This document shows, one piece after another, positions 537 to 45,662 of a stretch of DNA of 64,000 nt. A program made the position numbers and the translations under genes. Where the stretch lies: the NCBI RefSeq assembly GCF_016903815.1, contig NZ_CP069974.1; one strand, given 5' to 3'. Origin of the DNA: Escherichia coli. Lineage in GTDB: Bacteria > Pseudomonadota > Gammaproteobacteria > Enterobacterales > Enterobacteriaceae. How positions within the stretch are numbered: position 1 is the stretch's first letter; the number at the start of each line of letters is the position of its first letter. The notes beneath the pieces are model-generated. The model searched no databases. It was not told the DNA's origin and was given only the letters and a program-made list of their open reading frames with translations.

Positions 537-2990
537 TCAGTCTCCGCCCAGGGTTTTCTCTTTCTGCAGGTCACGAACCATATCCCGCTCCATCTGCTGC
601 AGACGCTCCTGCAGCAGATTTTCCCGGGCAACCTCCCGGACCGCTTCCCGTTCCCGTTGTGATTCACGCAGCACACTCTCCGGCAGTGCGGTTTCCCGTT
701 CAGAACTGGCAGTCCGGTCACGTTCCTGCCCGGCAATATCCCTGACAGCCAGCTCTGTTTTGCCGTCCGGCAGGTCAGGTTTGTTCTCTGCCATTTTACG
801 GACAATTTCATCTGCGCGACGTTCCGTTTCACGGCGGATGGCCTCTTCAGCCTGCCGCTGTGCCAGCACCTCTGCCGTGACCGGTTCGCCATTTCCGGCC
901 CCCGGCTGGACGCTGCTGTCCGGGATATCCCCCCACACGCGACCACCGGTGATGGCACCGGGATTCCACGGACGACCTTCACCGGCAATTCTTACCACCA
1001 CACCGCTGTCGGGATTATCACGGGCAATCCGGACACCATCCTGCATATTATCAGCCAGCAGGCTCTCTCCGTTACGGCTGCCCTGCAGGGCCACGAACTG
1101 CGCATCCCCGCGGCCTTTCACCCGTCCTTCACCGCTGAATCCCCGCAGCCCGTTTCCGTCATCCGTGGTCAGTGGGTTCAGCCAGATACCGGCGGACCTG
1201 CCGTTACGGTCAAACGCCGGCAGTGCCACATACGGCTGCGGATATTTACGTCCCGGTGCAATAAACCGTGCAGGGCTGTCTCCCCCGGCCAGCCCCGCCT
1301 GACGGAGAACGGCACGGCCTGCCGCCACGTCCCGCAGTTCCCGTGCCGTACTGAACAGCCGCTGCGCATTCATGACCTCCCGGTCCGGTTTCGGCTCAAA
1401 CACATCGTGGGCTGTTCCTTTCTGTACGGCATTGTTAATGGCATCCGTCCAGCCCTGACGGTTATCGGTGTACACCTGCACATGCTGCTTCATACGCGAC
1501 AGGGCCACGTAGGCTGACTCAAAGCCTGCCATCAGTTTCCGGTTACCTTCCGTGCCTTCAAGCGCAATGGCAAAGGTTTCACTTGTCCCCTGCGCACCGT
1601 GGGCGGTGATGGCATAGGCCAGGTCAATATGTTGCTCTGCCCGCTCCTGACCGGGGCGAATCACCCGGGTCTGCTGTCCGTCCGACAGCGTGACACTGTC
1701 ACCGGAAACCGCTGTCACCGTCCAGACGCTGTTGGCCACATAACCGCGCTCCCGGTCACTCTTCGTGAAGCGCATCCGGTCACCGGTTCCCACCCGGATT
1801 TTGTCTGGTGTGTACAGTGTGACACCTTCAGCCACCGCCTCCCGGGGCGAAATCAGCCGCGTGTTACCTTCCGCATCCTCCAGGGTTATCAGCCCGTCAT
1901 CCTTGCTGATACCGGCAATCCGGTGATACACACTATCCACCAGGGCAAGGGCATCCGGGTTATTCTCCCAGGTGGAGAGACGACGCAGTTCTCCGTCACG
2001 TATATTCGCTGTGTTCAGGACAGGCACCATGACCTGCTCTTTGCCCAGCTCACCGGCCTTTTCCCGTGCATCATGAATCATGCTGTTCAGTACGCGCCGG
2101 TCCTCATTCAGGTGCGTGACAATCAGCGTCTGCTCCCGTGCTTCCGGTGTCCTGCCGGTATAGTCGCGGACAATGGCCTCATACAGTGTCATGGGGATAT
2201 CCGGGAAAGCCTCGCCTTTCAGCATCGCCTTCTGCTGCGCTTCTGCCAGTTTCGCTTCCTGGCTGTGACTGAACTCCGTCACGGAGTGCTCCGGTGCCCA
2301 TGCGCCCTCCTGACGGGGAACCTGAGACGGTTTCACACTCTCAAGCCCGGACAGTGCCCTTTCCACATCCCGGTTAATCAGGCTGTATACCGCCTCCCGC
2401 AGTTCCGGCGTCTGACGCACAATCTCCTTCATGATGACCACATCGGCAGCACTGCGCGTCTGCTGCAGACGGAAAGGCTGACCGGGCGCGATGGCCTGCA
2501 GCTGGTCCGTGTCACCACTGGCCACGGCACGACCGCCACCGGCCGCAATCAGGGCGTATGCCCGTGCCATATCGGTATTGCCCACCATTGAGCTCTCATC
2601 GAGCAGGAACAGCGTGTTGCTGAAATCCGGCGTTTCTCCGCTGCGCTGCTGCAGCTGCGTGTCATGCAGAAAGGACGCCAGCGTCTGTGCATCCACGCCG
2701 GCGCTGCGCATCTCACCGACCGCACGGTGCGTGGGCCCCAGCCCCACAACTCGGGGACGCTCACTCGCCGGCAGCATGTTCACGGCTGACATCACCGCCC
2801 GGAACTGTGTGGTCTTACCCACACCGGCATAACCCTGTACCACCGTGAAACGGTCGGACGTTTCCAGTATCATACGGGTGGCGGCACGCTGTCCCGACGT
2901 TAACGTCTCCATGAGTTCGCCGGGTACTCTCTCCATCAACGGCGTGACCGCCTCCTTACCTTCGAGAATATGGCGAAGAATACTTTTTTC
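537..2990 (-). pseudogene. traI: traI 3' fragment (relaxase/helicase C-terminal part), severed by IS26
   Basis: ORF-track 1014-aa ORF matches F TraI C-terminal ~800 aa (from ...EKSILRHILEGKEAVTPLMERVPG... onward); its first ~200 codons run into IS26 and are not TraI. Confidence 0.9.
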
Positions 2991-3810: not shown

Positions 3811-4765
3811 TTAACAAGTTGTTTGGGTGTTCGAATTTCAACAGGTAAGTTAGTTGCTAGAACCCATGGCTCCTTTGCCGACGCTGAGTAGATTTTAGGT
3901 GACGGGTGGTGACAATGAGTCCGTGTCGAGCGCTGATTTTTTCGGCCTTTAGAGCGAGATTTATACAATAGAATTTGGCATGAGATTGGATTGCTTTTAG
4001 TCAGCCTCTTATAGCCTAAAGTCTTTGAGTGACTAGATGACATATCATGTAAGTTGCTGATAGGTTTCCAGTTTTCCGCTCCTAGGTCTGCATATTGTAC
4101 TTTTCCTCTTACTCGACTTAACCAGTACCAACCCAGCTTCTCAACGGATTTATACCATGGCACTTTAAAGCCAGCATCACTGACAATGAGCGGTGTGGTG
4201 TTACTCGGTAGAATGCTCGCAAGGTCGGCTAGAAATTGGTCATGAGCTTTCTTTGAACATTGCTCTGAAAGCGGGAACGCTTTCTCATAAAGAGTAACAG
4301 AACGACCGTGTAGTGCGACTGAAGCTCGCAATACCATAAGTCGTTTTTGCTCACGAATATCAGACCAGTCAACAAGTACAATGGGCATCGTATTGCCCGA
4401 ACAGATAAAGCTAGCATGCCAACGGTATACAGCGAGTCGCTCTTTGTGGAGGTGACGATTACCTAACAATCGGTCGATTCGTTTGATGTTATGTTTTGTT
4501 CTCGCTTTGGTTGGCAGGTTACGGCCAAGTTCGGTAAGAGTGAGAGTTTTACAGTCAAGTAATGCGTGGCAAGCCAACGTTAAGCTGTTGAGTCGTTTTA
4601 AGTGTAATTCGGGGCAGAATTGGTAAAGAGAGTCGTGTAAAATATCGAGTTCGCACATCTTGTTGTCTGATTATTGATTTTTCGCGAAACCATTTGATCA
4701 TATGACAAGATGTGTATCCACCTTAACTTAATGATTTTTACCAAAATCATTAGGGGATTCATCAG
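3811..4765 (-). mobile_element. Truncated IS10 (outside end plus 5' 955 bp), cut by IS26
   Basis: IS10 outside end CTGATGAATCCCCTAATGATTTTGGTAAAAATCATTAAG on minus strand ending at 4765; Tnp N-terminus MCELDILHDSLYQFCPELHLKRLNSLTLACH... (ORF 3792..4658). Confidence 0.8.
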
Positions 4766-5837
4766 AGCATGATATCAAAACGCTCTGAGCTGCTCGTTCG
4801 GCTATGGCGTAGGCCTAGTCCGTAGGCAGGACTTTTCAAGTCTCGGAAGGTTTCTTCAATCTGCATTCGCTTCGAATAGATATTAACAAGTTGTTTGGGT
4901 GTTCGAATTTCAACAGGTAAGTTAGTTGCTAGAACCCATGGCTCCTTTGCCGACGCTGAGTAGATTTTAGGTGACGGGTGGTGACAATGAGTCCGTGTCG
5001 AGCGCTGATTTTTTCGGCCTTTAGAGCGAGATTTATACAATAGAATTTGGCATGAGATTGGATTGCTTTTAGTCAGCCTCTTATAGCCTAAAGTCTTTGA
5101 GTGACTAGATGACATATCATGTAAGTTGCTGATAGGTTTCCAGTTTTCCGCTCCTAGGTCTGCATATTGTACTTTTCCTCTTACTCGACTTAACCAGTAC
5201 CAACCCAGCTTCTCAACGGATTTATACCATGGCACTTTAAAGCCAGCATCACTGACAATGAGCGGTGTGGTGTTACTCGGTAGAATGCTCGCAAGGTCGG
5301 CTAGAAATTGGTCATGAGCTTTCTTTGAACATTGCTCTGAAAGCGGGAACGCTTTCTCATAAAGAGTAACAGAACGACCGTGTAGTGCGACTGAAGCTCG
5401 CAATACCATAAGCCGTTTTTGCTCACGGATATCAGACCAGTCAACAAGTACAATGGGCATCGTATTGCCCGAACAGATAAAGCTAGCATGCCAACGGTAT
5501 ACAGCGAGTCGCTCTTTGTGGAGGTGACGATTACCTAACAATCGGTCGATTCGTTTGATGTTATGTTTTGTTCTCGCTTTGGTTGGCAGGTTACGGCCAA
5601 GTTCGGTAAGAGTGAGAGTTTTACAGTCAAGTAATGCGTGGCAAGCCAACGTTAAGCTGTTGAGTCGTTTTAAGTGTAATTCGGGGCAGAATTGGTAAAG
5701 AGAGTCGTGTAAAATATCGAGTTCGCACATCTTGTTGTCTGATTATTGATTTTTCGCGAAACCATTTGATCATATGACAAGATGTGTATCCACCTTAACT
5801 TAATGATTTTTACCAAAATCATTAGGGGATTCATCAG
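4766..5837 (-). mobile_element. Second truncated IS10 copy (5' 1072 bp) in direct tandem with the first
   Basis: Same IS10 end at 5837; Tnp N-terminal 322 aa (ORF 4762..5730); near-identical to 3811..4765 with 1072-bp period. Confidence 0.8.
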
Positions 5838-5872
5838 CGTATAGTGTTTTGCAGTTTAGAGGAGATATCGCG

Positions 5873-6733
5873 ATGCATACGCGGAAGGCAATAACGGAGG
5901 CGCTTCAAAAACTCGGAGTCCAAACCGGTGACCTCTTGATGGTGCATGCCTCACTTAAAGCGATTGGTCCGGTCGAAGGAGGAGCGGAGACGGTCGTTGC
6001 CGCGTTACGCTCCGCGGTTGGGCCGACTGGCACTGTGATGGGATACGCGTCGTGGGACCGATCACCCTACGAGGAGACTCTGAATGGCGCTCGGCTGGAT
6101 GACGAAGCCCGCCGTACCTGGCTGCCGTTCGATCCCGCAACAGCCGGGACTTACCGTGGGTTCGGCCTGCTGAATCAATTTCTGGTTCAAGCCCCCGGCG
6201 CGCGGCGCAGCGCGCACCCCGATGCATCGATGGTCGCGGTTGGTCCGCTGGCTGAAACGCTGACGGAGCCTCACGAACTCGGTCACGCCTTGGGGGAAGG
6301 ATCGCCCGTCGAGCGGTTCGTTCGCCTTGGCGGGAAGGCCCTGCTGTTGGGTGCGCCGCTAAACTCCGTTACCGCATTGCACTACGCCGAGGCGGTTGCC
6401 GATATCCCCAACAAACGGTGGGTGACGTATGAGATGCCGATGCTTGGAAGAGACGGTGAAGTCGCCTGGAAAACGGCATCGGATTACGATTCAAACGGCA
6501 TTCTCGATTGCTTTGCTATCGAAGGAAAGCCGGATGCGGTTGAAACTATAGCAAATGCTTACGTGAAGCTCGGTCGCCATCGAGAAGGTGTCGTGGGCTT
6601 TGCTCAGTGCTACCTGTTCGACGCGCAGGACATCGTGACGTTCGGCGTCACCTATCTTGAGAAGCATTTCGGAACCACTCCGATCGTGCCTCCGCACGAG
6701 GCCGTCGAGCGCTCTTGCGAGCCTTCAGGTTAG
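5873..6733 (+). CDS. aac(3)-II: Aminoglycoside 3-N-acetyltransferase AAC(3)-II (gentamicin/tobramycin resistance)
   Basis: 286-aa product MHTRKAITEALQKLGVQTGDLLMVHASLKAIGPVEGG... matches recalled AAC(3)-IIa/IId family; RBS GAGGAG 9 nt upstream. ORF-track start 5849 is an upstream extension. Allele (IIa/IId/IIe) not resolvable by eye. Confidence 0.9.
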   Translation: MHTRKAITEALQKLGVQTGDLLMVHASLKAIGPVEGGAETVVAALRSAVGPTGTVMGYASWDRSPYEETLNGARLDDEARRTWLPFDPATAGTYRGFGLLNQFLVQAPGARRSAHPDASMVAVGPLAETLTEPHELGHALGEGSPVERFVRLGGKALLLGAPLNSVTALHYAEAVADIPNKRWVTYEMPMLGRDGEVAWKTASDYDSNGILDCFAIEGKPDAVETIANAYVKLGRHREGVVGFAQCYLFDAQDIVTFGVTYLEKHFGTTPIVPPHEAVERSCEPSG

Positions 6734-6745
6734 AGGCCGTCGACA

Positions 6746-7288
6746 ATGATAATCTGGATCAACGGACCTTTCGGCGCCGGAAAGACGACGCTCGCTAAGC
6801 GGCTGCGCGATCGGCGTTCCAAATCGCTGATCTTTGACCCCGAGGAAATCGGGTTCGTGGTGAAAGAAACGGTCCCCATGCCAGCGAGCGGAGACTATCA
6901 GGATCTCCCCTTGTGGAGGGGACTTACGATCGCGGCGGTCAGGGAGATTCGAAGGAATTACTCGCAGGACATCATCATCCCAATGACGCTCGTGCACCCG
7001 GACTATCTGACTGAGATACTCGACGGGGTAAGGCGGATCGACGATCAGCTGCTGCACATCTTTCTGACGCTCAACGAGGACCTATTGCGTCACCGGATCG
7101 CGAACCAGACCATGCATCCTGACCCGAATCGAAATGCGGAGATTCGAGAGTGGCGATTAGCGAATGTCGCCCGATGCTTGGCCGCAAGGGAACGGCTTCC
7201 ATGCACAACCCGTGTTCTCGATAGTGGTGCACACACCAGCGATGAACTCGCAGCGATGGTGCTCGACGGAATCGATGGGCGCACCTGA
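6746..7288 (+). CDS. tmrB: Tunicamycin resistance protein TmrB-like ATP-binding protein
   Basis: 180-aa ORF with P-loop GPFGAGKTT; the gene classically linked downstream of aac(3)-II. Confidence 0.85.
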   Translation: MIIWINGPFGAGKTTLAKRLRDRRSKSLIFDPEEIGFVVKETVPMPASGDYQDLPLWRGLTIAAVREIRRNYSQDIIIPMTLVHPDYLTEILDGVRRIDDQLLHIFLTLNEDLLRHRIANQTMHPDPNRNAEIREWRLANVARCLAARERLPCTTRVLDSGAHTSDELAAMVLDGIDGRT

Positions 7289-7381
7289 TCGCCTTCGACG
7301 CCTGCGCAAAGCGTAGCGCGAGGGTGGCGGGCTCACGACCAAACGCCCAGAGGTCGATCATCGCAGGGATGTTTGGCTTTG

Positions 7382-7680
7382 TGGTGCGGACGACGGGACT
7401 CGAACCCGTACTCTCACAGAGAAGCAGATTTTCGTACCACCTCGACTTTCGCCGCCGTCTGATGACGTTCGTGGTCTGGACTGTCCCTTCGCCATTGCCC
7501 GAAGGCTTTAGGCGCCGCCCGTCCAGTCTCTACACCTTCCCCCGAAGGGGCTTGGCTCGGGATTGGCTTAGGGTATTGCCCGTTAGCGTTCCCCGACTTT
7601 GAGCGGTTCTACTCCGCGGATTTCCCCGCGGGCACTCCAATTTTAAAGTCTGCTGCGTCTACCGATTTCGCCACGTCCGC
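7382..7680 (-). tRNA. tRNA-Leu(UAA) gene interrupted in the anticodon loop by a ~213-nt group I intron
   Basis: Minus strand: 5' exon GCGGACGTGGCGAAATCGGTAGACGCAGCAGACTT (acceptor, class II D arm, anticodon stem, C32-U34); 3' exon AAAATCTGCTTCTCTGTGAGAGTACGGGTTCGAGTCCCGTCGTCCGCACCA (rest of loop, long variable arm, T arm GGTTCGAGTCC, acceptor exactly complementary to GCGGACG, encoded CCA). Exons roughly 7680..7646 and 7432..7382. Confidence 0.7.
7433..7645 (-). ncRNA. Group I intron (tRNA anticodon-loop type, resembling the small cyanobacterial/Azoarcus tRNA introns)
   Basis: Follows exon U34, ends in G; contains core-like segments CCGAGCCAAGC...GAAGGTGTAGAGACTGGACGG...CCTAAAGC resembling the recalled Azoarcus tRNA-Ile intron; no ORF. 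Boundaries +/- 2 nt. Confidence 0.6.
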
Positions 7681-8262
7681 CTTTTTTCGCCGTTCCTAGC
7701 GCTCGTGCGATGCACCTATGTTGCACCTAGCGCCGAATCGTTCTTCGTCATCCTGAAAAACCACGTCTCCTAAAGCCTTGCATAGCTTATCTTTTCTCCA
7801 CCACGAACTTTTTTGTGGGATGGTAGAAAAAAAGACTTTTTAAGTCCGCTGGCTTGCCAGGCCTTGTTAGCTTGTACGGTCATGGTTATCGGGTAAAGAA
7901 TATTGACGGCATCGCTGGTGTCGGTGGCTGAAAAGCCGGCTCCCATCAGGGCAATAGCCATTTCAGATGCAGGCGTACAGGGCAATGGTCAACAGCTACA
8001 GCCTGTCTGACGATTCCGGCGTCATGGCTGCGGCGGCTATCACGCATTTTTTGTTCGGTCAGGCGGTGTTTTCGTACCTCAATGGTTGGAGCGTGTTGAT
8101 CGGACCTGGTACAGGTTTGGACAGCACGGGCTGCAAATACGCAAGGGATTTAATGGGCCTGGTGGCGTTCACGGCTTTTATCGTGACGTTTCTGTTCAGG
8201 GGCTACTCATAATCTCGTGGCTCGGCGGTTCCCGGCACACCATGACAGTAAGGAAGGACCCT

Positions 8263-9390
8263 GTGTCTCAACTCTCCCAGCTTCGAAGCCCCGCCGCCGT
8301 GCAGGCTGCCATCGATGAGTTCGTGCAACTGGGCCGCACGAAATTCCTGGCGCGCCACGGCTACGGCAAGTCCCGCGACTTCCTGGTACGTGATCCGAAG
8401 ACCGGCACCGATTGCGATTCCAAGGCCATCGCCGGTGTGGCCTTCGGCAAGCAATTTCCCGAGCAGGGCCCGCTCACTGCTGACAGCTTCTCCGGTGGCG
8501 AGGCGACCGTCGTTCCGGCGCTGACGCGGCTCGGGTTTCGCATCATTCGCATCGGCGAAGACTGGTCCGAAGAAGAGGTCCTGGCCACGGTCGAAGACTA
8601 TTTCGACATGCTGCGTGCCGAGGCGGCTGGGGAGCCGTACAACAAGTCCGAGCACAACCAGGCACTGCGCCAACTGCTGAACGGTCGCAGCAAGTCTTCA
8701 GTCGAGCTCAAGCACCAGAACATTAGCGCCGTACTCGATGCCCTGGGCCTGCCCTATATCAACGGCTACAAGCCACGCGGCAACAGCCAACTGCTGCTGC
8801 GTAAATCCGTACACGCCTACGTTCTGGAACATCAGCAGACGGTCGGCGCTCTTGTCGATGCCCTGGAGGAGGTAAAACTTCCGGGTGACAAAACCTACCG
8901 AGCGGCTTTGGTAGAACCACCCGCCCGTGAAGTGCTTGTGCGTACCCCGGCATCTCTACGGCAACGCCTACCGCGAAAGTTCGATTATGCCGCTCGCGAT
9001 GAAGCCAACCGCAAGCTGGGCCGGGCAGGGGAGCAGTGGGTGATTGGCTACGAACAGCAACGCCTGACCGAGCTCGGCCACCCAGAGCTTTTTCAGCGGC
9101 TGGATTGGGTGTCCGACACCCAGGGAGACGGTGCGGGGTTCGACATCCTGTCGTTCGAAGAGGACGCCCATGAGCGCTTCATCGAGGTGAAAACCACCAA
9201 TGGCGGGGTAGGCTCGTCTTTCTTGGTCAGCCACAACGAACTCGAATTCTCCAAGGAGGCGGGCGATCAATTCCATCTGTATCGCGTGTTCCAGTTTCGG
9301 GACGGTCCGCGCCTGTTCACGCTACCCGGCGACCTCAGCCAACATGTGCATCTCAAGCCGACGGGCACTGTTGCAAATAGTCGGTGGTGA
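8263..9390 (+). CDS. DUF3883-type protein with PD-(D/E)xK-like C-terminal nuclease fold; 3' end fused into IS26
   Basis: ORF in frame of track ORF 8086..9390; likely start GTG 8263 (RBS AGGAAGG at 8251) or ATG 8242. C-terminal GFDILSFEEDAHERFIEVKTT...LYRVFQF recalled as DUF3883; last ~9 codons derive from the IS26 inverted repeat. Confidence 0.6.
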   Translation: MSQLSQLRSPAAVQAAIDEFVQLGRTKFLARHGYGKSRDFLVRDPKTGTDCDSKAIAGVAFGKQFPEQGPLTADSFSGGEATVVPALTRLGFRIIRIGEDWSEEEVLATVEDYFDMLRAEAAGEPYNKSEHNQALRQLLNGRSKSSVELKHQNISAVLDALGLPYINGYKPRGNSQLLLRKSVHAYVLEHQQTVGALVDALEEVKLPGDKTYRAALVEPPAREVLVRTPASLRQRLPRKFDYAARDEANRKLGRAGEQWVIGYEQQRLTELGHPELFQRLDWVSDTQGDGAGFDILSFEEDAHERFIEVKTTNGGVGSSFLVSHNELEFSKEAGDQFHLYRVFQFRDGPRLFTLPGDLSQHVHLKPTGTVANSRW

Positions 9391-25254: not shown

Positions 25255-28206
25255 TTGAGTTTCGGGAGCCGCGGTTTTGACGTTTTGCGGGGACCTGCCT
25301 TTTGTTCCCTCCGGTATTCACCATCACCTTTTTGAGAACCTTCGCCGCAAGGGGCATCACTGCCACGGACGGAAACGACTGTCCGGGGGCAGACCGCAAA
25401 AGTTTTTGCCTGCTTCTGGGCAAAAAGTTTTGCGGGATGTGCATTTCACCCCTGGACTGGCGGAGACGGTTGTGGCTGTCTTTGCCCCCGGCGACAGGGG
25501 CTTAAACAGGTGAATGGCACCGGACAGAACAACGGGCAGGGACCCGCCGCAACGACGTGAAGCGCGGTTTGCGAAACGGCGTTGCCCCTTACATCCCGGC
25601 GGTCTTTTGCCGGGATGCCAGGAGCGCAGGCCACGGCGCGACAGAGGCGGCGCGACCGGAACGGTCGCTGCAAGCCAGGGGTTTTCACGCATCGGACCGT
25701 AGCGACAGCCCGAAACCGCGCCAGCGGGTTCGGCGGAGACTGGCAGGTGCGCCAGCAGCTGCCTGTCGGAGTCGGGCCTGACGACCGGATGCCGCCAGGC
25801 AGCCGGGAGCCGAAGGTGCGCGTGCGACAGGAAGTCGCTTAACGTATTGTTTTACATTGATAAAACCAGCTATCCCATTAGCTGTAGCCTACCGGGACAG
25901 GCGTTGCCGGCAACGGCGGGGTCTGAAGCTCCCGGGACAACGAGAGCCGGGCGTCAGCCCGGGTAATGCCCCGTGAGGGGCTTTACCTTGCTGCAAGCAT
26001 CATGCGGCAGGAGAGCAAGGCTGGTCAGAAGGGTTAACACATGTGAACTGTTGATAAACACCGTTATCGGCAACAGGCCAAAGATGCTGACAGGCCTGAA
26101 CCAAAAGGTACGGGGTCCGGTTGCTACCTCGCGCACAGGGAGCACATGGGCGCAGAGACCCCCGGTGAAGAGACAGAACCCGCCCTGACCCTCTGTATGT
26201 TAAGCGGAACCTGGTAAACCCGTATCGCTGCCTCACAGGCAGGTGAACCGCAAGGAACACTGTTAGCGGTGCGGGCATAGGAGGACGGAAAAAGCGAATG
26301 CCCGGCTGTAATAACCGGGATACGGGGCAGGTTCCCCGACGCGAAAGCGGGCAGACTTCCGTCTGGTCTTTAATTGCATGAAAAGCTGTAAAGCAGTCAA
26401 AAGGATATCAGCGAGATGAATACACACATCAGTGTGTCCACGATACCCCACCCGACAGGCTGGCACACCATAAACTGGAAAGCATGCCATGCCCGGGTGC
26501 GAAAGCTACAGTTACGGATTGCAAAGGCAACCCGACAGCAACAATGGCGGCAGGTCAGAGAACTACAGCGCATCCTCACCCGCTCATTCTCCGGCAAAGC
26601 CGTGGCTGTCAGGCGTGTAACTGAAAATACCGGTAAAAGGACACCCGGTATTGACGGAAAAATATGGCACACACCGAAGGAGAAATGGGAAGGAATATGC
26701 AGCCTGAATCTGTGTGGTTACAGGCCACAGCCACTACGGCGAATACATATCCCAAAATCAAACGGCAAAACGCGACCGCTGGGCATACCCACAATGAGGG
26801 ACCGGGCCATGCAGGCACTGTGGCTGCTGGCTCTGGAACCCGTATCCGAGACCACTGCTGACCATAACAGCTATGGTTTCAGACCAATGCGCAGCACGCA
26901 TGACGCCATTGAGTCCATTTTTCTGCGGATGAGCCAGAAAGTATCGCCCAAATGGATACTGGAGGGCGATATTAAAGGGTGCTTCGATAACATCAGCCAT
27001 GACTGGCTGCTTTCCCATATTCCGATGGACAGGAGACTGCTTAAAAAATGGTTGAAAGCAGGTTACATGGAAAGAGGCGTGTTTAACCATACGAACAGCG
27101 GGACACCGCAGGGAGGCATCATATCCCCTGTTCTCGCCAACATGGCTCTGGACGGACTGGAGAAGGAACTGATGCAAACGTTCAGGAAAAGTGGTTATCA
27201 CAGTGCAAAGCACCAGGTGAATTATGTGAGATATGCTGATGATTTCATCTGTTCAGGCAGCTCCCGTGAATTGCTGGAAAATGAGGTCAGACCACTGATT
27301 GCAGCTTTCATGCGCGAACGAGGGCTGGAACTGTCGGAAGAAAAAACAGCGATCACACATATAGATAAAGGCTTCGACTTTTTAGGGCAGAACGTCAGGA
27401 AGTACAACGGTAAAATGCTGATTAAACCGTCGAAGAAAAACCTGAAGAACTTCCTCTGTAAAGTCAGAGAAATAATTAAACGCAATCCGACGCTCCCGGC
27501 ATGGAAACTGATAGGCCAGCTAAACCCGGTGATCCGGGGATGGGCTACCTATCACCGACACGTCGTGGCGAAAGAAACATTTAATTATGTCGACACCCAA
27601 ATCTGGCGAGCTATATGGCGATGGTGTGTAAGACGGCATCCCCGGAAAGGATTGCGGTGGATCGCCGGACGATACTTCTCCTTTGAAGGCAGGCGCTGGA
27701 TCTTTAAAGCCATAACCCCGGAAGGGAAAATTCTGACACTCTTCCGGGCAATGGAAACACCGATAAAGCGCCATATAAAAATCAAAGGCGAAGCAACACC
27801 ATACACCCCCGGAATGGAAATCTACTTTGAACGTCGTCTGGATCTAATCTGGAAAGGCAAATCAAAGAAGATGAAGACAGTAGTTCAACTCTGGAAGAGG
27901 CAGGGGAAACACTGTCCGCAGTGCGGACAACTCATAACCAACCAGACCGGATGGAATATACATCACCGGATCAGGAAAGTTATGGGCGGCAGTGACGAAC
28001 TGACCAATCTCGAGTTGTTACATCCGAACTGCCACCGACAGTTACACAGCAGGGAAGCCGGTGCTCACCGAAAGCACTTATAAAGGCTTGAGCGGAGTGC
28101 GGGGAAACTCGCACGCTCCGTTCTTAGGGGGCGGCGGCGCAGCAATGTGCCGCTGCTACCCGACCCGGCAGACAGGACAACACTGCAGTAGTCAGAATCA
28201 GAGCAG
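25255..28206 (+). mobile_element. Group II intron, copy A (RT/maturase with HNH endonuclease)
   Basis: Intron-encoded protein ORF plus domain V hairpin GAGCGGAGTGCGGGGAAACTCGCACGCTCCGTTC at 28093-28126; ends approximate (5' start lacks canonical GUGYG, 3' end between 28164 and 28206). Confidence 0.75.
26416..28083 (+). CDS. Group II intron-encoded reverse transcriptase/maturase/HNH endonuclease (555 aa)
   Basis: RT motifs incl. YVRYADDF, maturase X region, C-terminal CPQCG...HH HNH. Confidence 0.9.
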   Translation: MNTHISVSTIPHPTGWHTINWKACHARVRKLQLRIAKATRQQQWRQVRELQRILTRSFSGKAVAVRRVTENTGKRTPGIDGKIWHTPKEKWEGICSLNLCGYRPQPLRRIHIPKSNGKTRPLGIPTMRDRAMQALWLLALEPVSETTADHNSYGFRPMRSTHDAIESIFLRMSQKVSPKWILEGDIKGCFDNISHDWLLSHIPMDRRLLKKWLKAGYMERGVFNHTNSGTPQGGIISPVLANMALDGLEKELMQTFRKSGYHSAKHQVNYVRYADDFICSGSSRELLENEVRPLIAAFMRERGLELSEEKTAITHIDKGFDFLGQNVRKYNGKMLIKPSKKNLKNFLCKVREIIKRNPTLPAWKLIGQLNPVIRGWATYHRHVVAKETFNYVDTQIWRAIWRWCVRRHPRKGLRWIAGRYFSFEGRRWIFKAITPEGKILTLFRAMETPIKRHIKIKGEATPYTPGMEIYFERRLDLIWKGKSKKMKTVVQLWKRQGKHCPQCGQLITNQTGWNIHHRIRKVMGGSDELTNLELLHPNCHRQLHSREAGAHRKHL

Positions 28207-33500: not shown

Positions 33501-36997
<3,497 letters not shown>

Positions 36998-37039: not shown

Positions 37040-39991
37040 TTGAGTTTCGGGAGCCGCGGTTTTGACGTTTTGCGGGGACCTGCCTTTTGTTCCCTCCGGT
37101 ATTCACCATCACCTTTTTGAGAACCTTCGCCGCATGGGGCATCACTGCCACGGACGGAAACGACTGTCCGGGGGCAGACCGCAAAAGTTTTTGCCTGCTT
37201 CTGGGCAAAAAGTTTTGCGGGATGTGCATTTCACCCCTGGACTGGCGGAGACGGTTGTGGCTGTCTTTGCCCCCGGCGACAGGGGCTTAAACAGGTGAAT
37301 GGCACCGGACAGAACAACGGGCAGGGACCCGCCGCAACGACGTGAAGCGCGGTTTGCGAAACGGCGTTGCCCCTTACATCCCGGCGGTCTTTTGCCGGGA
37401 TGCCAGGAGCGCAGGCCACGGCGCGACAGAGGCGGCGCGACCGGAACGGTCGCTGCAAGCCAGGGGTTTTCACGCATCGGACCGTAGCGACAGCCCGAAA
37501 CCGCGCCAGCGGGTTCGGCGGAGACTGGCAGGTGCGCCAGCAGCTGCCTGTCGGAGTCGGGCCTGACGACCGGATGCCGCCAGGCAGCCGGGAGCCGAAG
37601 GTGCGCGTGCGACAGGAAGTCGCTTAACGTATTGTTTTACATTGATAAAACCAGCTATCCCATTAGCTGTAGCCTACCGGGACAGGCGTTGCCGGCAACG
37701 GCGGGGTCTGAAGCTCCCGGGACAACGAGAGCCGGGCGTCAGCCCGGGTAATGCCCCGTGAGGGGCTTTACCTTGCTGCAAGCATCATGCGGCAGGAGAG
37801 CAAGGCTGGTCAGAAGGGTTAACACATGTGAACTGTTGATAAACACCGTTATCGGCAACAGGCCAAAGATGCTGACAGGCCTGAACCAAAAGGTACGGGG
37901 TCCGGTTGCTACCTCGCGCACAGGGAGCACATGGGCGCAGAGACCCCCGGTGAAGAGACAGAACCCGCCCTGACCCTCTGTATGTTAAGCGGAACCTGGT
38001 AAACCCGTATCGCTGCCTCACAGGCAGGTGAACCGCAAGGAACACTGTTAGCGGTGCGGGCATAGGAGGACGGAAAAAGCGAATGCCCGGCTGTAATAAC
38101 CGGGATACGGGGCAGGTTCCCCGACGCGAAAGCGGGCAGACTTCCGTCTGGTCTTTAATTGCATGAAAAGCTGTAAAGCAGTCAAAAGGATATCAGCGAG
38201 ATGAATACACACATCAGTGTGTCCACGATACCCCACCCGACAGGCTGGCACACCATAAACTGGAAAGCATGCCATGCCCGGGTGCGAAAGCTACAGTTAC
38301 GGATTGCAAAGGCAACCCGACAGCAACAATGGCGGCAGGTCAGAGAACTACAGCGCATCCTCACCCGCTCATTCTCCGGCAAAGCCGTGGCTGTCAGGCG
38401 TGTAACTGAAAATACCGGTAAAAGGACACCCGGTATTGACGGAAAAATATGGCACACACCGAAGGAGAAATGGGAAGGAATATGCAGCCTGAATCTGTGT
38501 GGTTACAGGCCACAGCCACTACGGCGAATACATATCCCAAAATCAAACGGCAAAACGCGACCGCTGGGCATACCCACAATGAGGGACCGGGCCATGCAGG
38601 CACTGTGGCTGCTGGCTCTGGAACCCGTATCCGAGACCACTGCTGACCATAACAGCTATGGTTTCAGACCAATGCGCAGCACGCATGACGCCATTGAGTC
38701 CATTTTTCTGCGGATGAGCCAGAAAGTATCGCCCAAATGGATACTGGAGGGCGATATTAAAGGGTGCTTCGATAACATCAGCCATGACTGGCTGCTTTCC
38801 CATATTCCGATGGACAGGAGACTGCTTAAAAAATGGTTGAAAGCAGGTTACATGGAAAGAGGCGTGTTTAACCATACGAACAGCGGGACACCGCAGGGAG
38901 GCATCATATCCCCTGTTCTCGCCAACATGGCTCTGGACGGACTGGAGAAGGAACTGATGCAAACGTTCAGGAAAAGTGGTTATCACAGTGCAAAGCACCA
39001 GGTGAATTATGTGAGATATGCTGATGATTTCATCTGTTCAGGCAGCTCCCGTGAATTGCTGGAAAATGAGGTCAGACCACTGATTGCAGCTTTCATGCGC
39101 GAACGAGGGCTGGAACTGTCGGAAGAAAAAACAGCGATCACACATATAGATAAAGGCTTCGACTTTTTAGGGCAGAACGTCAGGAAGTACAACGGTAAAA
39201 TGCTGATTAAACCGTCGAAGAAAAACCTGAAGAACTTCCTCTGTAAAGTCAGAGAAATAATTAAACGCAATCCGACGCTCCCGGCATGGAAACTGATAGG
39301 CCAGCTAAACCCGGTGATCCGGGGATGGGCTACCTATCACCGACACGTCGTGGCGAAAGAAACATTTAATTATGTCGACACCCAAATCTGGCGAGCTATA
39401 TGGCGATGGTGTGTAAGACGGCATCCCCGGAAAGGATTGCGGTGGATCGCCGGACGATACTTCTCCTTTGAAGGCAGGCGCTGGATCTTTAAAGCCATAA
39501 CCCCGGAAGGGAAAATTCTGACACTCTTCCGGGCAATGGAAACACCGATAAAGCGCCATATAAAAATCAAAGGCGAAGCAACACCATACACCCCCGGAAT
39601 GGAAATCTACTTTGAACGTCGTCTGGATCTAATCTGGAAAGGCAAATCAAAGAAGATGAAGACAGTAGTTCAACTCTGGAAGAGGCAGGGGAAACACTGT
39701 CCGCAGTGCGGACAACTCATAACCAACCAGACCGGATGGAATATACATCACCGGATCAGGAAAGTTATGGGCGGCAGTGACGAACTGACCAATCTCGAGT
39801 TGTTACATCCGAACTGCCACCGACAGTTACACAGCAGGGAAGCCGGTGCTCACCGAAAGCACTTATAAAGGCTTGAGCGGAGTGCGGGGAAACTCGCACG
39901 CTCCGTTCTTAGGGGGCGGCGGCGCAGCAATGTGCCGCTGCTACCCGACCCGGCAGACAGGACAACACTGCAGTAGTCAGAATCAGAGCAG
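37040..39991 (+). mobile_element. Group II intron, copy B (identical protein to copy A)
   Basis: Same offsets as copy A (+11785); immediately upstream of and divergent from ssb. Confidence 0.75.
38201..39868 (+). CDS. Group II intron RT/maturase/HNH (copy B)
   Basis: 555 aa, identical to copy A. Confidence 0.9.
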   Translation: MNTHISVSTIPHPTGWHTINWKACHARVRKLQLRIAKATRQQQWRQVRELQRILTRSFSGKAVAVRRVTENTGKRTPGIDGKIWHTPKEKWEGICSLNLCGYRPQPLRRIHIPKSNGKTRPLGIPTMRDRAMQALWLLALEPVSETTADHNSYGFRPMRSTHDAIESIFLRMSQKVSPKWILEGDIKGCFDNISHDWLLSHIPMDRRLLKKWLKAGYMERGVFNHTNSGTPQGGIISPVLANMALDGLEKELMQTFRKSGYHSAKHQVNYVRYADDFICSGSSRELLENEVRPLIAAFMRERGLELSEEKTAITHIDKGFDFLGQNVRKYNGKMLIKPSKKNLKNFLCKVREIIKRNPTLPAWKLIGQLNPVIRGWATYHRHVVAKETFNYVDTQIWRAIWRWCVRRHPRKGLRWIAGRYFSFEGRRWIFKAITPEGKILTLFRAMETPIKRHIKIKGEATPYTPGMEIYFERRLDLIWKGKSKKMKTVVQLWKRQGKHCPQCGQLITNQTGWNIHHRIRKVMGGSDELTNLELLHPNCHRQLHSREAGAHRKHL

Positions 39992-42244: not shown

Positions 42245-42475
42245 TCAGTTAAAAGCGCGTTTCAGTTCGAGTGTGCGGAGCACCTGCCCGAAGGCCGTGT
42301 TTTTCATGGCGGGGATGTGTACACCACGCCCCCGGTGAAAACTCCGGGCAATGTGTCGCCCGAAGGCTTTCAGCACGGGGTCAATTTCCGGCGCGGGGAT
42401 GTCTTCGCGTCTGAAACGGGGATGACGGCGGGGCTTTACAGCCGCTGCGGAAGGTGAAACAATACTTACTGTCAT
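42245..42475 (-). CDS. Small hypothetical protein
   Basis: 76-aa ORF upstream of the 453-aa gene. Confidence 0.3.
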   Translation of the reverse strand: MTVSIVSPSAAAVKPRRHPRFRREDIPAPEIDPVLKAFGRHIARSFHRGRGVHIPAMKNTAFGQVLRTLELKRAFN

Positions 42476-42713
42476 AATTTAGCCTCTTATGACGTTAATT
42501 AATGAAACCGTAAAGACTGTTCGTGCAGTCTCTGCGGTGTGGATTAAGCAGGTCCCTGACCTGCTTTTTTCATATCTGCGTCTGACGTTCTCCGGTGTTT
42601 TCCTCCTTCTGTTCCTGCGTTCTCATTACCTGCCAGCCGGATGACTGACAGAACACATAAATGCGTATTGCCGGAGCCTGAAATAAATCCTGATTTTTAA
42701 AGAACATCACCCG

Positions 42714-45662
42714 TTGAGTTTCGGGAGCCGCGGTTTTGACGTTTCGCGGGAACCTGCTGCTGTATACCCTGTGGTATGAACTTCACCCGTTTGAGAACCT
42801 TCGCCGCAAGGGGCATCACTGCCACGGCCTGACGCACCTGTCCTGGGCAGAACGCAAAATTTTTTACCGGGTTTTGGGTAAAAAATTTTGTGGGCTGTTC
42901 ATTTACCCTGGACAGTCAGTGCGGCAGGTTGTGGCTGTATCAGCCCCAGGCGACAGGGACTCATACGGGTGTGTGGCACCGGCAGGCAATGAGCAGGGAC
43001 CCGCCGCAACGACGGAGAGCGCGTGCGCGAAACGGCGTTGCCCCTTACATCCCGGCGGCCTTTTGCCGGGATGCCGGGAGCGCAGGCCACGGCGCGACAA
43101 GGGTGGCGCGACCGGAACGGTCGCTGCAAGCCCGGGGTTTTCACGCATCGGACCGTAGCGACAGCCCGAAACCGCGCCAGCGGGTTCGGCGGAGACTGGC
43201 GGGTGCGCCAGCAGCTGCCTGTCGGAGTCGGGCCTGACGACCGGATGCCGCCAGGCAGCCGGGAGCCGAAGGTGCGCGTGCGACAGGAAGTCGCTTAACG
43301 TATTGTTTTACATTGATAAAACCAGCTATCCCATTAGCTGTAGCCTACCGGGACAGGCGTTGCCGGCAACGGCGGGGTCTGAAGCTCCCGGGACAACGAG
43401 AGCCGGGCGTCAGCCCGGGTAATGCCCCGTGAGGGGCTTTACCTTGCTGCAAGCATCATGCGGCAGGAGAGCAAGGCTGGTCAGAAGGGTTAACACATGT
43501 GAACTGTTGATAAACACCGTTATCGGCAACAGGCCAAAGATGCTGACAGGCCTGAACCAAAAGGTACGGGGTCCGGTTGCTACCTCGCGCACAGGGAGCA
43601 CATGGGCGCAGAGACCCCCGGTGAAGAGACAGAACCCGCCCTGACCCTCTGTATGTTAAGCGGAACCTGGTAAACCCGTATCGCTGCCTCACAGGCAGGT
43701 GAACCGCAAGGAACACTGTTAGCGGTGCGGGCATAGGAGGACGGAAAAAGCGAATGCCCGGCTGTAATAACCGGGATACGGGGCAGGTTCCCCGACGCGA
43801 AAGCGGGCAGACTTCCGTCTGGTCTTTAATTGCATGAAAAGCTGTAAAGCAGTCAAAAGGATATCAGCGAGATGAATACACACATCAGTGTGTCCACGAT
43901 ACCCCACCCGACAGGCTGGCACACCATAAACTGGAAAGCATGCCATGCCCGGGTGCGAAAGCTACAGTTACGGATTGCAAAGGCAACCCGACAGCAACAA
44001 TGGCGGCAGGTCAGAGAACTACAGCGCATCCTCACCCGCTCATTCTCCGGCAAAGCCGTGGCTGTCAGGCGTGTAACTGAAAATACCGGTAAAAGGACAC
44101 CCGGTATTGACGGAAAAATATGGCACACACCGAAGGAGAAATGGGAAGGAATATGCAGCCTGAATCTGTGTGGTTACAGGCCACAGCCACTACGGCGAAT
44201 ACATATCCCAAAATCAAACGGCAAAACGCGACCGCTGGGCATACCCACAATGAGGGACCGGGCCATGCAGGCACTGTGGCTGCTGGCTCTGGAACCCGTA
44301 TCCGAGACCACTGCTGACCATAACAGCTATGGTTTCAGACCAATGCGCAGCACGCATGACGCCATTGAGTCCATTTTTCTGCGGATGAGCCAGAAAGTAT
44401 CGCCCAAATGGATACTGGAGGGCGATATTAAAGGGTGCTTCGATAACATCAGCCATGACTGGCTGCTTTCCCATATTCCGATGGACAGGAGACTGCTTAA
44501 AAAATGGTTGAAAGCAGGTTACATGGAAAGAGGCGTGTTTAACCATACGAACAGCGGGACACCGCAGGAAGGCATCATATCCCCTGTTCTCGCCAACATG
44601 GCTCTGGACGGACTGGAGAAGGAACTGATGCAAACGTTCAGGAAAAGTGGTTATCACAGTGCAAAGCACCAGGTGAATTATGTGAGATATGCTGATGATT
44701 TCATCTGTTCAGGCAGCTCCCGTGAATTGCTGGAAAATGAGGTCAGACCACTGATTGCAGCTTTCATGCGCGAACGAGGGCTGGAACTGTCGGAAGAAAA
44801 AACAGCGATCACACATATAGATAAAGGCTTCGACTTTTTAGGGCAGAACGTCAGGAAGTACAACGGTAAAATGCTGATTAAACCGTCGAAGAAAAACCTG
44901 AAGAACTTCCTCTGTAAAGTCAGAGAAATAATTAAACGCAATCCGACGCTCCCGGCATGGAAACTGATAGGCCAGCTAAACCCGGTGATCCGGGGATGGG
45001 CTACCTATCACCGACACGTCGTGGCGAAAGAAACATTTAATTATGTCGACACCCAAATCTGGCGAGCTATATGGCGATGGTGTGTAAGACGGCATCCCCG
45101 GAAAGGATTGCGGTGGATCGCCGGACGATACTTCTCCTTTGAAGGCAGGCGCTGGATCTTTAAAGCCATAACCCCGGAAGGGAAAATTCTGACACTCTTC
45201 CGGGCAATGGAAACACCGATAAAGCGCCATATAAAAATCAAAGGCGAAGCAACACCATACACCCCCGGAATGGAAATCTACTTTGAACGTCGTCTGGATC
45301 TAATCTGGAAAGGCAAATCAAAGAAGATGAAGACAGTAGTTCAACTCTGGAAGAGGCAGGGGAAACACTGTCCGCAGTGCGGACAACTCATAACCAACCA
45401 GACCGGATGGAATATACATCACCGGATCAGGAAAGTTATGGGCGGCAGTGACGAACTGACCAATCTCGAGTTGTTACATCCGAACTGCCACCGACAGTTA
45501 CACAGCAGGGAAGCCGGTGCTCACCGAAAGCACTTATAAAGGCTTGAGCGGAGTGCGGGGAAACTCGCACGCTCCGTTCTTAGGGGGCGGCGGCGCAGCA
45601 ATGTGCCGCTGCTACCCGACCCGGCAGACAGAACAACACTGCAGTAGTCAGAATCAGAGCAG
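42714..45662 (+). mobile_element. Group II intron, copy C (diverged 5' ~330 nt, 1 aa difference in protein)
   Basis: Same architecture; protein differs Q->E in GTPQ(G/E)GIISP. Confidence 0.75.
43872..45539 (+). CDS. Group II intron RT/maturase/HNH (copy C)
   Basis: 555 aa. Confidence 0.9.
   Translation: MNTHISVSTIPHPTGWHTINWKACHARVRKLQLRIAKATRQQQWRQVRELQRILTRSFSGKAVAVRRVTENTGKRTPGIDGKIWHTPKEKWEGICSLNLCGYRPQPLRRIHIPKSNGKTRPLGIPTMRDRAMQALWLLALEPVSETTADHNSYGFRPMRSTHDAIESIFLRMSQKVSPKWILEGDIKGCFDNISHDWLLSHIPMDRRLLKKWLKAGYMERGVFNHTNSGTPQEGIISPVLANMALDGLEKELMQTFRKSGYHSAKHQVNYVRYADDFICSGSSRELLENEVRPLIAAFMRERGLELSEEKTAITHIDKGFDFLGQNVRKYNGKMLIKPSKKNLKNFLCKVREIIKRNPTLPAWKLIGQLNPVIRGWATYHRHVVAKETFNYVDTQIWRAIWRWCVRRHPRKGLRWIAGRYFSFEGRRWIFKAITPEGKILTLFRAMETPIKRHIKIKGEATPYTPGMEIYFERRLDLIWKGKSKKMKTVVQLWKRQGKHCPQCGQLITNQTGWNIHHRIRKVMGGSDELTNLELLHPNCHRQLHSREAGAHRKHL

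Follow-up and report, generated by a model that had tools for sequence, protein, structure and literature searches.

A split tRNA-Leu(UAA) gene in an aac(3)-IId module

The DNA analyzed was a 64,000-nucleotide stretch of Escherichia coli NZ_CP069974.1 (GCF_016903815.1), and "the window" refers to this full 64-kb sequence. Between the tmrB gene (6746..7288, plus strand) and a DUF3883 gene (8242..9390, plus strand), inside a resistance module that carries aac(3)-IId, the minus strand holds a tRNA-Leu(UAA) gene whose anticodon loop is very probably interrupted by a group I intron. The element covers 299 nucleotides of the minus strand (7680..7382) and consists of the following parts:

7680..7646, minus strand: exon 1 of tRNA-Leu(UAA), 35 nucleotides, GCGGACGTGGCGAAATCGGTAGACGCAGCAGACTT
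7645..7433, minus strand: group I intron (the insert), 213 nucleotides, starting with TAAAATTGG (UAAAAUUGGAG) and ending with GGTACG
7432..7382, minus strand: exon 2 of tRNA-Leu(UAA), 51 nucleotides, ending with CGTCCGCACCA, with CCA encoded

Exon 1 contains the 5′ strand of the acceptor stem (GCGGACG), the D arm, the 5′ strand of the anticodon stem (GCAGA) and then C32, U33 and U34, the last of which (7646) is nucleotide -1 of the 5′ splice site. Exon 2 continues with A35, A36, A37 and A38, followed by the 3′ strand of the anticodon stem (UCUGC), the long variable arm, the T arm, the 3′ strand of the acceptor stem (CGUCCGC), the discriminator A and the encoded CCA. In the unspliced gene, the border between exon 1 and the intron reads GCAGACTT/TAAAATTGG and that between the intron and exon 2 reads GGTACG/AAAATC, where the last intron base is the terminal G (omega-G) at 7433. 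From the coordinates, the junction of the joined exons reads GCAGACUU/AAAAUCUGC, or in a longer form GCAGACTT/AAAATCTGC. No open reading frame (ORF) for a homing endonuclease was present within the 213-nucleotide intron.

With default settings, ARAGORN reported no tRNA anywhere in the 64-kb window. In its intron mode, the program called a split tRNA with outer limits at exactly 7680..7382, and the label attached to this call, "tRNA-Stop(tta)", was rejected because it resulted from a splice put at the eukaryal/archaeal 37/38 position. The splice site was reset by the group I rule, with one cut after U(-1) and one after the terminal G. When the exons were joined at U34/A35, ARAGORN called an 86-nucleotide tRNA-Leu(taa), a class II cloverleaf with a 7-bp acceptor stem, a long variable arm, discriminator A73 and a 3′ CCA. 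These results agree with the preliminary description of this locus, which had proposed a complete class II tRNA-Leu(UAA) on the minus strand with the acceptor stem GCGGACG/CGTCCGC and an encoded CCA, interrupted after U34 by an insert of about 213 nucleotides that ends in G, and had placed it between tmrB and the DUF3883 gene of an aac(3)-II/tmrB module. The three core-like strings that it had pointed out, CCGAGCCAAGC, GAAGGTGTAGAGACTGGACGG and CCTAAAGC, are all present in the insert.

Homologs of the split gene

Homologs were searched in one genome per species using the 21-nucleotide P7/P3 core of the intron, GAAGGTGTAGAGACTGGACGG, as the search word, and at least 120 loci were obtained. Among the matches listed, the species that carry this core were mostly Alphaproteobacteria, Microbacterium and Eremiobacterota, and the core interrupts several tRNAs, most often Arg-CCU (tRNA-Arg(cct) by ARAGORN). 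The preliminary description had limited such introns to cyanobacteria, plastids and a few proteobacteria; the presence of the core in at least 120 species-representative genomes contradicts this. A published survey has reported 5,292 intron-split bacterial tRNA genes (10.1101/2020.01.27.920355).

At least 40 genes, including that of the window, are tRNA-Leu(UAA) genes with the CUU/…G/AAAA interruption. The intron ends in G in all 40, and every one of these genes that is not cut by a contig end can be spliced in silico to a tRNA-Leu(taa). Over the full 299 nucleotides, the best identities among the matches listed were to Phyllobacterium salinisoli (95.4%, the highest), a Roseovarius metagenome-assembled genome (MAG; 94.6%), Mesorhizobium sp. 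RMAD-H1 (93.7%), a Novosphingobium MAG (93.4%), Mesorhizobium sp. BR1-1-16 (90.7%) and Camelimonas lactis (90.1%), all of them chromosomal and alphaproteobacterial. Exon 1 is the same or almost the same as exon 1 of the alphaproteobacterial chromosomal genes.

A leave-one-out nhmmer profile, built from 26 homologs without the window copy, gave one match in the 64 kb, at 7653..7427, with E = 9e-65. A profile built from the 12 distant members alone (64-83% identity) returned the same single match with E = 2.9e-54. The resemblance is thus far above chance.

Predicted structure of the intron

An alignment of 27 of the tRNA-Leu(UAA) genes was used to derive the structure. Without guidance, RNAalifold predicted P2, P3, P4, P5, P6, P8, P9, P9a and P9b, with compensatory changes in 26 of 55 pairs. 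Its pairing of the exon with the 3′ strand of P7 was rejected since the P3/P7 pseudoknot is beyond the method, and an explicit structure was used instead. The elements that could be placed on the window copy are as follows:

7635..7648, minus strand: P1, in which exon C-U-U (7648-7646) pairs with the internal guide G-A-G (7637-7635)
7610..7634, minus strand: P2, a hairpin with a GAAA tetraloop and compensatory changes in 9 of 10 pairs, predicted independently by RNAalifold
7515..7606, minus strand: P3 (7606-7601 with 7520-7515); between its strands lie the P4-P5-P6 domain (7596-7535) and the 5′ strand of P7
7478..7530, minus strand: P7, the guanosine-binding helix, with the 5′ strand G-A(bulge)-GACUG at 7530-7524 and the 3′ strand CAGUCC at 7483-7478
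7436..7475, minus strand: P9, which contains two smaller hairpins, P9a and P9b (GAAA loop); UACG and the 3′ splice site come next

In this structure, which comprises P1-P9 and the P3/P7 pseudoknot, all 63 of 63 pairs of the window copy are Watson-Crick or G·U. The preliminary description had made its claim depend on such a fold with the exon U paired to the guide, and the splice-site U.G wobble is formed here by 7646 and 7637; among the homologs, the U.G and the C-G pair are each found in 27 of 27. The helices P3, P4, P5 and P6 were all found both by RNAalifold and by the fold of the single sequence. Pairing across the alignment was 100% for P3, P4 and outer P6, 98% for inner P6 and 83-91% for P5, and each of these four helices has compensatory changes. 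P7 forms a pseudoknot with P3 and encloses P8 (7514-7490); its 6 pairs all form in the window copy. Compensatory changes are also found in P8 and in all three of P9, P9a and P9b, which are 95-100% paired. Overall, 95.8% of the alignment cells pair, compared to 34-46% when the 3′ partners were slid by 1-3 columns, and 30 of the 63 pairs have changed on both sides; none of 500 shuffles matched any observed measure. The window copy retains all family-invariant columns. The sequence shows GAAA loops in P2 and P9b, and P8 and P5 contain CCUAA(A)G…AUGG-like motifs that, by analogy with the Azoarcus structure, may be the receptors of the IC3 contacts L2-P8 and L9-P5.

Judged from its sequence, the intron belongs, in intact form, to the classical Leu.3Ug class, and this class has been assigned to subgroup IC3 (10.1101/2020.01.27.920355). 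We therefore consider the element to be a structurally intact alphaproteobacterial tRNA-Leu(UAA) gene, split at U34/A35 by a 213-nucleotide Leu.3Ug group I intron and carried as a passenger of a plasmid module, with a probability of about 0.9. This figure covers identity and structural intactness and does not extend to activity in the present hosts.

Spread and annotation of the element

A 461-nucleotide region with the element was found in 1,316 PLSDB plasmids, in 1,309 of them at 99% identity or more, and the plasmid hosts include Escherichia, Klebsiella, Salmonella, Acinetobacter, Enterobacter, Shigella, Citrobacter, Aeromonas and Pseudomonas. The region was also present in 645 of 5,426 complete E. 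coli genomes (about 12%), at 82 chromosomal and 600 plasmid places. This spread looks like the result of a single clonal capture.

The Prokaryotic Genome Annotation Pipeline (PGAP) annotates no tRNA or intron under the element, and the site is left empty or filled with spurious "hypothetical proteins". One of these is a 57-aa PGAP protein, WP_180354954.1 (7787-7960, minus strand), which lies over the tRNA leader. Several databases list the translation of an ORF antisense to the intron (7324-7602, plus strand) as a protein (P0270-P0275), among them UniRef, with an "uncharacterized protein" of Salmonella London. In papers on such plasmids, the unit is drawn as aacC2-tmrB-orf192-orf228-orf1182-ISCfr1 and no tRNA is shown (PMC7096625). 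A full-text literature search gave no paper that links tmrB with "group I intron" or "tRNA-Leu", within a coverage that is incomplete and leaves room for an earlier report. The 2017 genome set of the Williams survey (10.1101/2020.01.27.920355) probably held such plasmids, and the element may have been counted there without being singled out. The element is thus a known kind of RNA in a place without previous annotation, and a complete ribozyme-bearing tRNA gene has been overlooked in more than 1,300 sequenced plasmids.

Composition of the module

DNA homology divides the surroundings of the element into segments:

5839..7368, plus strand: segment A, aac(3)-IId (5873-6733), tmrB (6746-7288) and 80 bp more
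7382 to ~7850, minus strand: segment B, tRNA-Leu, intron and leader, homologous to alphaproteobacterial chromosomes
7681..7850, minus strand: 5′ leader of the tRNA gene (within segment B), homologous to the leaders of chromosomal tRNA-Leu(UAA) genes
8242..9390, plus strand: segment C, the DUF3883 / NO VEIN-domain gene ("orf1182"), with homology over ~8244-9364

In segment B, the homology extends 60-170 bp upstream of the gene, to ~7740-7850, in Mesorhizobium sp. RMAD-H1, the Roseovarius MAG and the Novosphingobium MAG, which indicates that the native leader was captured together with the tRNA gene. In several Alphaproteobacteria (L072, L079 and L048), a degenerate 35-nucleotide copy of exon 1 (ending …GACTT) followed by a short hairpin and a run of T was observed ~160-180 nucleotides upstream of tRNA-Leu; these copies aligned with scores of 46, 44 and 34, whereas shuffled sequences reached 24 at most. 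Of this arrangement, the window retains the hairpin and T-run alone (7847-7827, minus strand), a remnant of the upstream exon-1-like copy. On the other side, homology to the alphaproteobacterial genes ends at CCA. Because the 3′ flanks also differ between all the species, this sharp end is uninformative and gives no evidence of an island.

Segment A is a separate unit that ends 13 bp short of the tRNA 3′ end, so the A/B junction lies within 7369-7381 and adjoins the tRNA. It has 94.6% DNA identity to units of an insertion sequence (IS), aac(3) and tmrB (L139-L143) that are located beside relaxase, TraG and Tn3 genes; the TmrB of these units has 97% identity and takes its name from Brucella intermedia M86. 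These mobile pairs are preceded by a DDE_Tnp_1_4 IS. In one of them (L139, ~8875-8925), a tRNA 3′ half in reverse complement that ends in CCA was observed about 330-390 nucleotides downstream of tmrB. It is Gly-GCC-like by eye, has the same orientation as the tRNA-Leu of the window and was called by no program as a whole tRNA; it may be the remnant of an attachment site.

More distant relatives of segment A (5839-7286; 86% DNA identity) occur on long environmental contigs (L122-L124), whose neighborhood of extracytoplasmic function (ECF) sigma, EF-hand and BA14K genes is syntenic with that of Sinorhizobium meliloti (L125-L126), where only tmrB is found (81%). In these contigs and in L128, the AAC(3) and TmrB proteins have 87% and 88% amino-acid identity to the plasmid pair and the DNA 86%. 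Since the pair lies in a chromosomal neighborhood syntenic with S. meliloti, these sequences point to Rhizobiaceae-like bacteria as a natural reservoir of aac(3)-II. The tRNA-Leu is found in none of these relatives of segment A (L122-L126, L139-L143).

The DUF3883 gene of segment C, whose 3′ end is clipped by IS26 in the window, has 84-89% amino-acid and 81-84% DNA identity to chromosomal genes of Stutzerimonas and Pseudomonas. In S. kunmingensis (L134), an IS1182-family element comes after the gene, an order also seen in the complete module, and the identity to the DUF3883 gene and ISCfr1 of that module is 89.6% over 2.8 kb. In the Stutzerimonas/Pseudomonas loci L134-L136, the DUF3883 (ScoMcrA_N and NOV_C) gene comes directly after a gene for a DEAD/UvrD-type helicase of ~1,700 aa. 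The two together look like a defence-like unit, of which the plasmid module kept the DUF3883 gene alone. The stretch from ~7851 to 8243 ("orf192" and "orf228") had no match among the sequences retrieved. In the window, ISVsa5 copies form the left border of the unit and IS26 its right border.

None of the 120 genome loci listed encodes AAC(3), TmrB or DUF3883 near the tRNA, and tmrB next to tRNA-Leu was absent from all non-plasmid sequence retrieved. Two metagenome scans designed to leave out the plasmid copies gave 0 matches for the tmrB-tRNA adjacency, and a protein search in which the translated antisense ORF of the intron served as a stand-in gave solely plasmid copies with indels (L144, L145). 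In the divergent mobile tmrB variants (L129-L133), other IS elements interrupt the sequence ahead of the tRNA. Given the Pseudomonas-like DUF3883 flank, the junction within 13 bp of the tRNA and the lack of the adjacency in non-plasmid sequence, the aac(3)-IId/tmrB module is, to judge from these homologies, a mosaic of rhizobial/Brucella-type, alphaproteobacterial and Pseudomonas/Stutzerimonas-type parts.

The preliminary description had seen in the tRNA a marker of the genome that donated the aac(3)-II/tmrB segment. This proposal holds in part: the closest relatives of both are alphaproteobacterial (Hyphomicrobiales-type), but it is limited by the missing adjacency, the mosaic structure and the flank of Pseudomonas/Stutzerimonas type. 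The tRNA and the resistance pair both point to Alphaproteobacteria, probably Hyphomicrobiales, as the source of a clinically important gentamicin-resistance gene. tRNA genes are good phylogenetic markers, and in this sense the element marks the alphaproteobacterial ancestry of the aac(3)-II module. It supports such an origin and names no donor. That tRNA-Leu and aac(3)/tmrB were neighbors in one donor genome is a hypothesis.

Proposed splicing and expression

If the gene is transcribed, the intron would fold into P1-P9 and exon CUU would pair with the GAG guide of the intron, which places U34 in the U.G wobble. P7 would bind a free guanosine, and this would then attack after U34. In the following step, the terminal G (7433) would take the same pocket and the 3′-OH of U34 would attack the 3′ splice site and thereby ligate the exons. 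Cleavage by RNase P and trimming of the 3′ end to the encoded CCA would yield the class II tRNA-Leu. The gene would have entered enterobacterial plasmids together with the aacC2(aac(3)-IId)-tmrB-...-ISCfr1 module, in which it was a passenger. The splicing route is modeled on that of related introns, and we infer catalysis, transcription in enterobacteria, charging by leucyl-tRNA synthetase (LeuRS) and the status of selectively neutral cargo.

Alternative explanations

Several results weigh against the interpretation of the element as an intact ribozyme-bearing tRNA gene. At gathering thresholds, Rfam gave nothing at the intron site. In E-value mode, on a 551-nucleotide region, RF00028 matched over the full model (1-253) at 7655..7463 on the minus strand with E = 7.9e-8, but the score of 36.8 bits is below the curated gathering cut-off of 50. 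The single-sequence fold reproduced most helices with an unremarkable energy (z = -1.4), and the invariance of P7 among the homologs is uninformative because its 5′ strand lay in the search word. The near-identity of the plasmid copies mirrors recent spread and not selection. A sigma-70 promoter scan of 7200-8000 found none with 9/12 matches or more, the best relaxed match (8/12) being far upstream; there is no terminator after the tRNA gene; and the literature search found no experiment on this sequence and no expression data.

The low Rfam score and the z-score would fit a decayed or chance look-alike, an insert with the mere appearance of a group I core that is incapable of folding or splicing. 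However, undoubted chromosomal homologs scored only 43, 38 and 31 bits with RF00028 and three others missed E ≤ 1e-3, so the low score is due to the model and not to the window copy. The preliminary description had named the lack of a significant RF00028 match as a refutation; the outcome lies in between, with a significant, full-length match below a gathering score that the chromosomal homologs fail as well. This score is an operational cut-off and not a biological feature. In the Williams survey, the Rfam group I seed was noted to be without bacterial sequences and cut-offs of 18-20 bits were used instead (10.1101/2020.01.27.920355). The blanks of Rfam at gathering thresholds and of ARAGORN at default settings reflect a limitation of the tools and are not evidence of absence. 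With the 63 intact pairs, the retained invariant positions, the strong covariation and the leave-one-out E-value, a look-alike is already contradicted and almost certainly wrong. An intact gene could nevertheless be silent. In this explanation, which concerns the functional state and is compatible with the identity of the element, the gene is untranscribed or too weakly transcribed in Enterobacteriaceae and persists as inert DNA through the recent spread of the module. The lack of a sigma-70-like promoter or terminator around the gene makes enterobacterial expression doubtful, transcription entering from upstream would be halted by the hairpin and T-run at 7847-7827 in the leader, the tRNA gene points away from DUF3883 and towards tmrB, and the clonal copies show no visible purifying selection. 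On the other hand, the native leader of ~170 bp is conserved in the alphaproteobacterial homologs and may hold a promoter that simple scans miss, and pervasive or IS-derived transcription is common on plasmids. We regard the chance that the gene is silent as close to even, if slightly short of it. That the element is expressed and spliced in E. coli has a chance well below one half.

It is very improbable that the element is selected cargo, in which an extra tRNA-Leu(UAA) or the intron RNA benefits the hosts, for example as a UUA/UUG decoder. The gene is intact and very widespread, and nothing more speaks for this; linkage to aac(3)-IId explains the spread, the copies are clonal, truncated modules without the tRNA exist, there is no evident promoter, and the hosts possess a tRNA-Leu(UAA) of their own. 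Another explanation concerns the route of arrival and is likewise compatible with the identity of the element: the tRNA may have been a boundary or attachment site beside aac(3)-tmrB in an alphaproteobacterial donor, from which ISCfr1 or IS26 took both sides. The homology of the aac(3)-tmrB unit that stops 13 bp from the tRNA, the 3′ tRNA fragment downstream of tmrB in the Brucella-type unit and the alphaproteobacterial relatives of TmrB and AAC(3) would agree with this. Nevertheless, neither an integrase nor a direct repeat could be identified, the two metagenome scans and the 120 listed genome loci all lacked the adjacency, and a sharp end at CCA is expected anyway where the 3′ flanks differ among all species. 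This route is rather unlikely. Still less likely is the combined case, in which the native leader drives transcription of the gene, the intron self-splices in Enterobacteriaceae and the tRNA is also the landmark of a Hyphomicrobiales donor beside aac(3)-II/tmrB. If it were true, about one eighth of sequenced E. coli, and many Klebsiella, Salmonella and Acinetobacter, would contain a foreign tRNA-Leu and, outside phages, an active group I ribozyme, both of them missed by every annotation pipeline. Expression would make the element a natural experiment on a foreign self-splicing tRNA in enteric bacteria, and the landmark would make the origin of aac(3)-II/tmrB directly traceable.

Other RNA features of the window

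Three identical copies of a group II intron (D1-D4 with domain V/VI) were observed at 25866-26015, 37651-37800 and 43322-43471 on the plus strand, with RF00029 matches at 28088, 39873 and 45544 (plus) and a fourth domain V/VI match at 34298-34418 (minus). RNA-OUT matches at 4651-4720 and 5723-5792 (plus) are part of the two ISVsa5 (IS10-like) copies that adjoin aac(3)-IId on its left side. Two antisense RNAs of plasmids, AS-traI and AS-pc01, are also in the window (2882-2958 and 42470-42569).

Comparison with known systems

Accessory tRNA genes of plasmids and phages are likewise tRNAs on mobile elements. Unlike these, the tRNA of the window has a ribozyme inside it and came along as by-catch of a resistance gene, and there is no evidence here of a codon-usage benefit or of expression. 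Other bacterial tRNA group I introns, those of Arg-CCU in Alphaproteobacteria and of Ile/Met-CAU of the Azoarcus type, share the exact 21-nucleotide core GAAGGTGTAGAGACTGGACGG with the window intron and differ in the host tRNA and in the position in the anticodon loop. The Azoarcus and Agrobacterium introns self-splice.

The trnL(UAA) intron of cyanobacteria and plastids (Anabaena/Nostoc type) has the same insertion site, U34/A35. The conserved core strings (…GAGCCAAGC… and …GAAGGUG.AGAGACU.GACGG…) are presumably shared by the Anabaena sequence and the window intron. The window intron is shorter (213 nucleotides) and G+C-rich, has short P5, P6 and P9 peripheries and belongs to a distinct alphaproteobacterial clade, features that would set it apart from the cyanobacterial type. 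The equivalence of the class with the cyanobacterial/plastid trnL(UAA) intron has been stated (10.1101/2020.01.27.920355; PMC4476775).

The closest known systems are the chromosomal Leu.3Ug introns of Alphaproteobacteria such as Phyllobacterium salinisoli and Mesorhizobium, which have the same tRNA, the same splice position (CUU/...G/AAAA), the U.G pair, the terminal G and P1-P9, with 90-95% identity to the window copy across the whole gene. In contrast to these chromosomal genes, the window copy is parted from its native 3′ flank, and copies of its type are carried on conjugative resistance plasmids and on the chromosomes of Enterobacterales, Acinetobacter, Aeromonas and Pseudomonas.

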